DNA of 64,000 nucleotides from positions 9,734,001-9,798,000 of the forward strand of contig CM102290.1 of NCBI GenBank assembly GCA_046563655.1, given 5' to 3'. The position numbers and the translations under genes are program-made. Positions 21,509 through 23,399 of the stretch are shown in pieces. Position 1 is the first letter of the stretch. Each line of letters begins with the position of its first letter. The notes below the pieces were generated by a model. It saw only the letters and a list, made by a program, of their open reading frames with translations. It had not been told where the DNA came from and did not search any database. Source of the stretch: Yuukianura sp. NJ FZ-2021. Its lineage: Eukaryota.

Positions 21509-22550
21509 AAAACTACAATAATGCGACGATGGAATGAAACCGTTTTTGGGACGAAACGAAATCTGAAGAATCTGTTATATAACTTCCATGTGATATTTAC
21601 AAAAACAAAATCGATCATTTTAAAGTTTTCTCGCAATGCAATTTTAAACACCTTATGTCTACTAAATTCATTTTCGTCTATTTTATTTAGATTTAAGGGA
21701 CCTTAGACACACACTGACTCATCTTGGACACTGTACTATGCATACACTCTCCAAAACATTCATAGCACGTTCGGAATACGTAAATTTCACGTATTTTTAA
21801 TAAATAATTAATTCAATTTTATACTGAAACATGTAACTATGTTCTTTACTTGATTTGTTTCTTTCCACTGATACCCTGCATGCAAGTTGTTATACATCGT
21901 GGATAGTAAAAGTTGTAAGTGTTAATAAGTAAATGATGCGGTAATCAGTGAATTATTCAAACGATTTTGGACGATTTTAGTTTAAGTTTAAGTTAAGTTG
22001 TGAATTATTATTGTGCTATTGTTTACAATTTATTTCATTTTTTAATTTATCATTTACTGTTTACGTACGTTTACGATATCTTCTTCTTCGCCATTTTTAA
22101 ATTTTATATCTCGAGAAGGAAAACGTTAAAGATCTCTTCGGGAAAAACTTTCAAAAAATGTGAAAAATTTTAAATATTGAAAATTCCAAAATCCAACCAC
22201 AATTTTTTCGTCATCTATGCTTTGCTTTGTTACCCTGATGCCCATGCGCGGGGTTTTCTTTGTTTGCAGTTTGCTGTGAGTGTGGGAGGATTTTCTTATT
22301 CCCACCCACTCGCAAGACAGAGCGCAGAGATGAAAGGCCAACCGTTGACCTGACCTGTCATCCTTCTTCCAACACTACTAATTAAAAGAAGGACCTTGTA
22401 CTATCTCGACTCTGGAAATTAGGGACGGTTTGACATCACATTGTTTCCGCTGGACTTTGTGTCATTCATCGACATCTTTGGGACAAGGGTAAGCAGAATT
22501 CAGATCAATAAGTCACTCTCGTAATTTGATCGGCTGATTTTGTGTTTCAG

Positions 22551-22913
22551 ATGACCGGTCGCTACCCTTCCACCGGTCGTCAGACACTGACGACTCCATC
22601 ATCGATTGTGTCGCATTACGCATACGAGGGCTGCAGTTCCGGCAATGTCTCAAGCATTTCGCCAACATGGTTCGACCTGGAAAACGACTGGCAGTATGTG
22701 GGATACGTATTGCGTCCGATTACCGCCGCTATCAATGCCACACTCGACAAGATTCTCACTCGTAAGAATCCAACTCCAGCACCGGCTATTCCAGATGCGC
22801 CTCCTAGCGGTACATTTCGTGATTGCCCGACGATGCTGGCCTACAAAGTGGCAAGTCTTGGTGCTATTGGAATCGGTACACTGGCCATCATGTCATGGAA
22901 GGCACTTTCCTGA
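22551..22913 (+). CDS. Uncharacterised 120-aa protein with a C-terminal hydrophobic anchor
   Basis: The ATG sits directly after a clean intron (AGG|GTAAGC at 22489 ... TTTCAG| at 22550). An in-frame stop in the upstream exon makes this ATG the start. The ORF is GC-richer than its flanks and ends in VASLGAIGIGTLAIMSWKALS. Confidence 0.65.
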   Translation: MTGRYPSTGRQTLTTPSSIVSHYAYEGCSSGNVSSISPTWFDLENDWQYVGYVLRPITAAINATLDKILTRKNPTPAPAIPDAPPSGTFRDCPTMLAYKVASLGAIGIGTLAIMSWKALS

Positions 22914-23399
22914 ACACCAGTCTCACAAATTAACTCAACGTCATCACACAAATTCCTCAAAATCATAATCTAACCAATACTGAAGTCAGGTATGCTATGC
23001 CGGAGATGGCCAATAGTAAGGAAAAATTATGTCAAAAGTACTTGCGTTGATCATGTAGTATAATCAAAGATATTGAAAGAAAGGCTTGAATCACAATTGT
23101 AAAACGCATTGTTCTTATGAGTAAACTACAAACTTCTTCTTAAAAATTCAATAGCCACGATTTGTCACATTGTACAATATTTCGTAATTTTTGTAAAATT
23201 GGATTTAAAACTATTTTGCATTAGATTTATTCAAAATTATTTGTCAGCCTTGTCCCTTTTCCTTTTGTAGTCCCCCTGACTTTGGACGGAAATTCACCGT
23301 TATGTTCTGTGACATTATTTTAAAGCTTCCGTTTTCAATTAATTAAAGTTTTCAATTAACTAATTACTAATATGATTGAGATTGCCACTAGGGGATAAG

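Follow-up and report, generated by a model that had tools for sequence, protein, structure and literature searches.

Tail-anchored BH3-only proteins, for which we take Bik, Hrk and Bim as type names, are among the described systems closest to the locus reported here, being small and mostly disordered, with one amphipathic helix, a Leu-Arg core and a predicted C-terminal anchor, all of which also apply to P0001, the product of this locus. As in that type, the four BH3 sites and an extra N-terminal site of P0001 are hydrophobic, in a genome that carries Bcl-2-family genes; on the other hand, it has Thr-Ala in place of Gly-Asp, a Pro in the core, and no sequence homology to BH3-only proteins.

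Insects were long thought to be without BH3-only death control, and the only case described in the available text of PMC10107002 and PMC8998228 is a fly protein. In the accessible part of PMC10107002, the minimal BH3 pattern is given as L-X3-[GAS]-D, and the fly protein Sayonara, unlike P0001, is a coiled-coil family protein with the full L-X3-G-D motif. The acidic BH3 site is presented as crucial in the excerpted text of PMC9171138. Asn or Gln can stand in for the acid there, whereas Ala has a destabilising effect, and Bak BH3 binds less stably once its Asp is changed to Ala; loose BH3 patterns are given little predictive value in the same text. As far as the available passages go, a designed PUMA variant tolerates Ala at the Asp site (PMC5464773) and HBx binds Bcl-xL through a short Trp/Leu helix (PMC6642116), which together set a precedent for ligands that lack the Asp bridge. 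In the same passages, the BH3-like motif of HBx resembles P0001 in being a short helix with a Trp, a hydrophobic residue three positions on, a Gly and another hydrophobic residue, without L-X3-G-D; the comparison is an analogy only, given that HBx is viral and unrelated and that its WXXXGE register puts an acid where P0001 has Tyr52 (PMC6642116). In the open-access literature, no paper on springtail BH3 proteins was found, a viral review alone surfaced for arthropod or crustacean BH3-only proteins, and nothing surfaced on amphipathic helices of the GH3 kind, as in Grim.

A further described system is BNIP3/NIX (PF06553), in which the order of a W-x-x-L, a helix and a Gly-rich terminal hydrophobic stretch is the same as in P0001.

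The gene of P0001 lies in the window, by which the whole stretch of 64,000 nucleotides that was analysed is meant (C8:9734001-9798000 of a 98.7-Mb assembly in 22 contigs), and it is present in the assembly in one copy. The open reading frame (ORF) at 22551-22913 on the + strand comprises 120 residues and a stop, and the features of the locus, in positions of the window, are the following.

22397..22488, + strand: covered part of exon 1, which holds no ATG and is taken as 5' untranslated region (contig 25 of run X5)
22489..22550, + strand: 62-nt GT-AG intron that abuts the start codon (joint skipped in run X5; ends read)
22551..22913, + strand: coding sequence without introns, 120 residues, P0001, one copy (ORF; ungapped in the contigs listed)
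22668..22679, + strand: W40-x-x-L43 core, which fits the loose AIM definition and fails xLIR
22683..22736, + strand: degenerate BH3-like amphipathic helix, residues 45-62, with W47, V50, G51, L54, R55, I57, I61 and Pro56 as key residues and Thr-Ala replacing Gly-Asp (motif profiles; low-confidence single-sequence model)
22764..22832, + strand: Pro-rich linker, residues 72-94 (sequence; pLDDT <50 for 77-95)
22833..22898, + strand: predicted tail anchor, residues 95-116, Gly/Ala-rich and moderately hydrophobic, behind which come 4 last residues that include one Lys (hydropathy; low-confidence model)
22914..22991, + strand: covered part of the 3' untranslated region (contig 25 of run X5)

The layout described in the first-pass annotation, that is, a Ser/Thr-rich N-terminus, W40-F-D-L43, W47-Q-Y-V50, the segment 50-63, a Pro-rich linker and a hydrophobic terminus, is all in place in the sequence, as are the two caveats attached to it, Thr58-Ala59 instead of Gly-Asp and Pro56; the 62-nt GT-AG intron just 5' of the ATG and the upstream exon without an ATG come in addition to that description. 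Five public runs cover the stretch, none of which is recorded as RNA, and four of the five were compared here. In run X5, a 533-nt contig joins 22397-22487 to 22550-22991 and thereby skips the 62-nt intron, and the same run also skips a 65-nt intron of the neighbouring GTPase gene and a 94-nt intron of the TRAF gene, so that an RNA origin is the likely reading of these three skipped introns, while the GT-AG ends place the transcript on the + strand. Because it is spliced, the ORF stands beyond chance, and the spliced contig makes it very likely that this is a real gene, whose translation we infer.

No relative of P0001 was found in Pfam (nothing at E<=10), in a word search limited to lengths of 66-210 (six candidates, none at E<=1), with phmmer (no match at E<=0.001 among 1.84 billion representatives), in metagenome and viral contigs, or by exact sequence look-up, and the PDB sequences gave five compositional matches for the whole protein and 0 for residues 40-69. 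The ESM Atlas returned no usable match for the whole of P0001 or for residues 36-120, which indicates neither novelty nor absence. Synteny through the GTPase neighbour, with 80 loci retained and a best identity of 59%, provided no close relative, and tblastn of P0001 on a set of 88 loci gave nothing under E 1.3. Given that a low-complexity protein of 120 residues may escape all of these search thresholds, the term "orphan" is used here in the sense of "not found".

The single-sequence structure model of P0001 has a mean pLDDT of 43.6, with 87 of the 120 residues below 50 and no confident fold, which is weak evidence for disorder in a model of this kind; at low confidence it places one helix at 43-70 (pLDDT 50-59 in the BH3-like region) and another at 89-119. 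No Pfam family and no confident fold were thus found, as expected of a BH3-only protein, which is largely disordered and has no other BH region or Bcl-2 fold. Residues 95-116 are predicted to form a tail anchor, whose best 19-residue Kyte-Doolittle mean (1.59, against 1.88, 1.94 and 2.53 for three tail anchors of the same genome) puts this Gly/Ala-rich segment at the low end of the hydrophobicity range. A moderately hydrophobic anchor with a short tail that carries one Lys is usual for proteins of the mitochondrial outer membrane or the endoplasmic reticulum (ER).

Potential partners exist in the genome, where PF00452 finds two loci, a Bax-like gene on C6 and a divergent gene on C2. The former is a 248-residue model with a complete BH3, and its named relatives, at 58-66% identity over one exon, come from Orchesella and Folsomia, so that the animal is probably a springtail; the latter (C2:7530060-7530860; L003:1231-2030) has its best PDB matches in BCL2L10 and BOK. 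In this second gene, BH1 has Lys instead of Arg, and Gly-Asp is absent from the exon expected to hold the BH3. A search for further Bcl-2-family genes yielded two places with the BH1 pattern, both in closed frames, and the protein searches returned the two known loci, so that two is a lower bound. The genome also holds a Hid-like gene with a canonical BH3, on C7 from 10051133 (L145:634-3054), which was located by a pattern of the start motif as one of 11 places; its three exons, separated by GT-AG introns, encode 277 residues with an IAP-binding-type start, a full Gly-Asp BH3 that scores 36.4, and a tail anchor. A second IAP-binding-type start, followed by a Pro-rich stretch, lies at C2:1678485-1678502 on the - strand (L136/L146) and possibly belongs to an RHG-like gene; no BH3 was found within 5 kb of it.

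It is against these motifs that the helix of P0001 may be compared. Residues 46-62 score 24.0 against a profile of seven Bax-like BH3 motifs, which is the top score of 219,087 stop-free 17-mers from 264 kb of the genome (the window and 20 stretches; the next scores are 23.7, 23.6 and 23.0) and is reached by 21 of 20,000 shuffles. On a joint 18-residue profile of the genome's own two BH3 motifs, those of the Bax-like and Hid-like genes, P0001 is second of 208,873, at a level reached by 12 of 20,000 shuffles. These two motifs have six residues in common, four of which (W, G, L and R) are held by P0001, without the Asp; four of the six occur in 739 of 50,000 shuffles, and in 48 of 50,000 when three hydrophobic BH3 sites are required as well. 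The four hydrophobic BH3 sites, V50, L54, I57 and I61, lie with W47 on one face of the helix, whose hydrophobic moment, 0.43, lies between those of the two motifs (0.42 and 0.47), and hhalign picks the same register, with an E of 0.04 and a probability of 1.3%, against 7.4% for the canonical Hid-like BH3. P0001 does not match the minimal motif L-X3-[G/A/S]-D, reading L54-R-P-I-T58-A59 in its place, and Pro56 would be expected to kink the helix in its core. The BH3-like amphipathic helix that was first proposed from an alignment with the Bim BH3 is thus supported by its match to the Bax-like and Hid-like motifs, and given that these were unknown to the author of the proposal, the match is partly independent of the selection of the ORF.

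A tentative proposal, which we would place somewhat short of an even chance, is that tail-anchored P0001 is a low-affinity ligand of a Bcl-2-family groove, which would tune the cell-death threshold rather than trigger death. Translation would start at 22551, and residues 95-116 would insert into the mitochondrial outer membrane or the ER membrane, leaving a disordered cytosolic part in which residues 45-62 would fold on contact, so as to lay W47, V50, L54, I57 and I61 into the groove of a Bcl-2-family protein. The loss of the Asp would make for a weak grip, from which the low affinity is inferred, and the death threshold may be shifted as a result. P0001 would therefore fall outside the BH3-only class by its motif, and yet it may work like a BH3-only protein.

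Should P0001 occupy a Bcl-2 groove in spite of the missing Asp, the range of BH3 ligands would widen, which would explain why the BH3 ligands of arthropods escape motif searches. The two Bcl-2-family genes, one of them Bax-like, the Hid-like gene with its full BH3 and this degenerate BH3-like orphan would then offer, within one genome, a death network of a basal hexapod that is small, complete and testable. Without such binding, P0001 is one more small orphan gene.

The latter outcome corresponds to the explanation that survives best beside the proposed groove ligand, and which we regard as only a little less probable: that P0001 is an ordinary, lineage-restricted, tail-anchored membrane microprotein, whose amphipathic helix serves an unrelated partner or a membrane, and whose BH3 and LIR looks are due to chance. 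The missing Gly-Asp, the Pro in the helix and the homologues found nowhere are all consistent with this, and the first-ranked background match on the own-motif profiles, above P0001, is a spectrin repeat of nesprin. The strict canonical BH3 pattern points the same way, given that it occurs in nine places of the genome, none of them a BH3-only gene (seven in a short, non-coding repeated element, one with an in-frame stop and one in an unrelated frame); such motifs therefore arise by chance in this genome. A chance of about 1 in 1,000 to 1 in 1,700 per protein, multiplied by a guessed 100-200 small tail-anchored orphans, gives an estimate of about 0.1 case per genome. What speaks against chance is that the match hits precisely the residues that are common to two independent BH3 motifs of the same genome, in a protein whose small, disordered and tail-anchored build is that of the BH3-only type. 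Judged from sequence, the BH3-like helix is beyond chance for P0001 alone, and not at the scale of the genome.

A variant of the groove-ligand proposal would derive P0001 from the Hid-like gene, in which the order of helix, linker and Gly/Ala-rich tail is the same, whereas the 277 residues, three coding exons, IAP-binding-type start and full Gly-Asp of that gene have no counterpart in P0001. Six residues of the first 11 are identical between the two helices (N, W, V, G, L and R). The local score of the pair is reached by 389 of 5,000 shuffles (1,124 of 5,000 for the tails alone), and BLASTP of P0001 against the Hid-like protein gives nothing. An end-to-end alignment sets helix on helix and tail on tail, with 11 and 43 of 5,000 shuffles doing as well against the last 100 Hid-like residues, a cut chosen post hoc, and 288 and 368 of 5,000 at full length. 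A pattern built from the two helices occurs in eight places genome-wide, and none of the other six reads as a BH3 gene; all eight lie on one strand, so that the count may be incomplete, and both the 11-residue window and this pattern were chosen after the match had been seen. With regard to the N-terminal IAP-binding motif of RHG/Hid-like proteins, which we take to be an Ala after the Met, P0001 starts with M-T-G-R, and the covered first exon holds no upstream ATG.

An intron-free coding sequence behind an intron in the untranslated region would fit a retrocopy, and it is possible, if unlikely, that P0001 arose without introns from the 3' half of the Hid-like gene and lost the IAP-binding start. 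A more far-reaching form, which we hold to be improbable, is that this intron-less copy of BH3 and tail, without the IAP-binding start and without Gly-Asp, would act as a "pseudo-BH3" brake, which shares the membrane of its parent and vies with it for binding to either the Bax-like protein or the other member of the Bcl-2 family. Were this true, the pseudo-BH3 would be a natural death brake in a lineage of hexapods whose BH3 control has hardly been described, and the apparent tandem multiplication of the whole unit in a second sample (run X4, below) would make its dose variable.

A different function altogether would be that of a selective-autophagy receptor, resembling BNIP3/NIX in action only, in which the tail is anchored in an organelle and W40-x-x-L43 binds Atg8, so that the membrane is drawn into autophagosomes. 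The xLIR pattern and a looser AIM definition are both given in the available text of PMC5119064, and W40-F-D-L43 has the loose core [WY]-x-x-[LIV] and, at X2, the acidic residue that goes with it, in a stretch of low pLDDT with Ser/Thr before and acids after it. A motif test composed after W40FDL43 had been seen is passed by just 56 of 20,000 shuffles, and the genome carries Atg8-family genes, so that W40FDL43 may bind Atg8. On the other hand, both W-x-x-hydrophobic motifs of P0001 fail xLIR, which 2,778 of 20,000 shuffles and the genome's own BNIP3 pass; P0001 has three W-x-x-[LIV] words, and at least one such word occurs in 9,393 of 20,000 shuffles, which is not beyond chance. The second motif, W47-Q-Y-V50, coincides with the front part of the BH3-like helix, and a BNIP3 is already present in the genome, all of which leaves the receptor function with a small probability. 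Of the Atg8-family loci, one exon (C7:10047128-10047340) lies ~4 kb from the Hid-like gene, and two others (C1:4304590-4304938 and C1:4900840-4901200) have identical scores on opposite strands, ~600 kb apart, and represent either a recent duplication or an assembly duplicate.

It is very improbable that the locus gives a transcript that is spliced but non-coding, or very young, with an ORF from which no functional protein is made. Besides the lack of any homologue found, this would be suggested by the codon score, which does not separate the frames (0.120 for the ORF, 0.127 for one antisense frame), and by the overlapping frame at 22591-22968 on the + strand, which is open for 125 codons and has no Pfam match. 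Against it, the codon score of the ORF is above that of 99.5% of 1,434 random frames, no other ATG precedes that of the ORF in the 533-nt spliced contig, where it stands directly after the intron with an A at -3, and the ORF occupies 363 of the 533 covered bases, with an ordered build of helix, linker and hydrophobic tail that ends at the stop. Among the contigs listed, which cover it wholly or partly, the ORF is ungapped in four, one from each of four runs, and the sole difference within it, among the differences listed, is silent (22836, Leu96). Run X4 has 5 differences in 525 over the gene against 35 in 831 in the two flanks (p 0.0004), where a depth below 5 and possible errors make the lower rate over the gene weak evidence, and in the deep run X1 no clear drop is seen over the gene, which has 3 differences in 657 nt where the stretches compared with it have 4 in 1,017 and 2 plus 3 gaps in 394, as the non-coding explanation would have it.

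Finally, that P0001 is a diverged BNIP3/NIX paralogue, as the similar order of parts, the Gly-rich tail and the presence of the genome's own BNIP3 on the same contig might suggest, is close to refuted, given that P0001 has no PF06553 match, that its similarity to this BNIP3 is at the level of shuffles (whole local score reached by 4,690 of 5,000, tails by 3,811 of 5,000), and that an intron-free coding sequence stands against a part model of five exons. The PF06553 profile search locates that gene at C8:9327361-9328151, ~430 kb from the gene of P0001, and its part model has GT-AG introns and a tail stronger than that of P0001. The BNIP3-like receptor proposed in the first-pass annotation is therefore not supported, given a separate and dissimilar BNIP3 that passes xLIR where the motifs of P0001 do not, whereas a small orphan gene, spliced and with no relative found, its likely tail anchor and its BH3-like amphipathic helix all stand. 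In the exon model of the genome's own BNIP3 (L005:1974-2050), the central Trp box, which we take to be a conserved feature of the family, is half kept, due either to divergence or to a slip in the assembly.

The gene of P0001 is flanked by a Ras-family GTPase exon upstream and a convergent TRAF-type MATH exon downstream, presumably Rab9 and TRAF6, as they were named in the first-pass annotation. No TRAF-binding motif was found in P0001, and the neighbouring genes give no functional clue for it.

The surrounding DNA also presents signs of repetition. In run X4, one contig of 772 nt leads from 22948 back to 22221, at a depth of 11.9 against 2.7-4.8 in the flanking contigs; a tandem array of ~3 copies would produce such a pattern, as would a circle or an artefact of amplification. 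All of the coding sequence lies in the unit (22221-22948), together with the intron, exon 1 and ~175 nt upstream, and CGTCATC occurs near both ends. Just 5' of the gene, ~120 nt of the window (22093-22213) are a fragment, at 78-82% identity, of a 318-bp tandem satellite, for which the genome holds at least 185 further matches. Elsewhere, a dispersed element of ~190 bp, with six copies that are 94-99% identical (L125, L126 and L130-L133, at ~1460-1645) and a diverged look-alike (L129), reads as a textbook BH3 in one frame and is thus a trap for motif searches.
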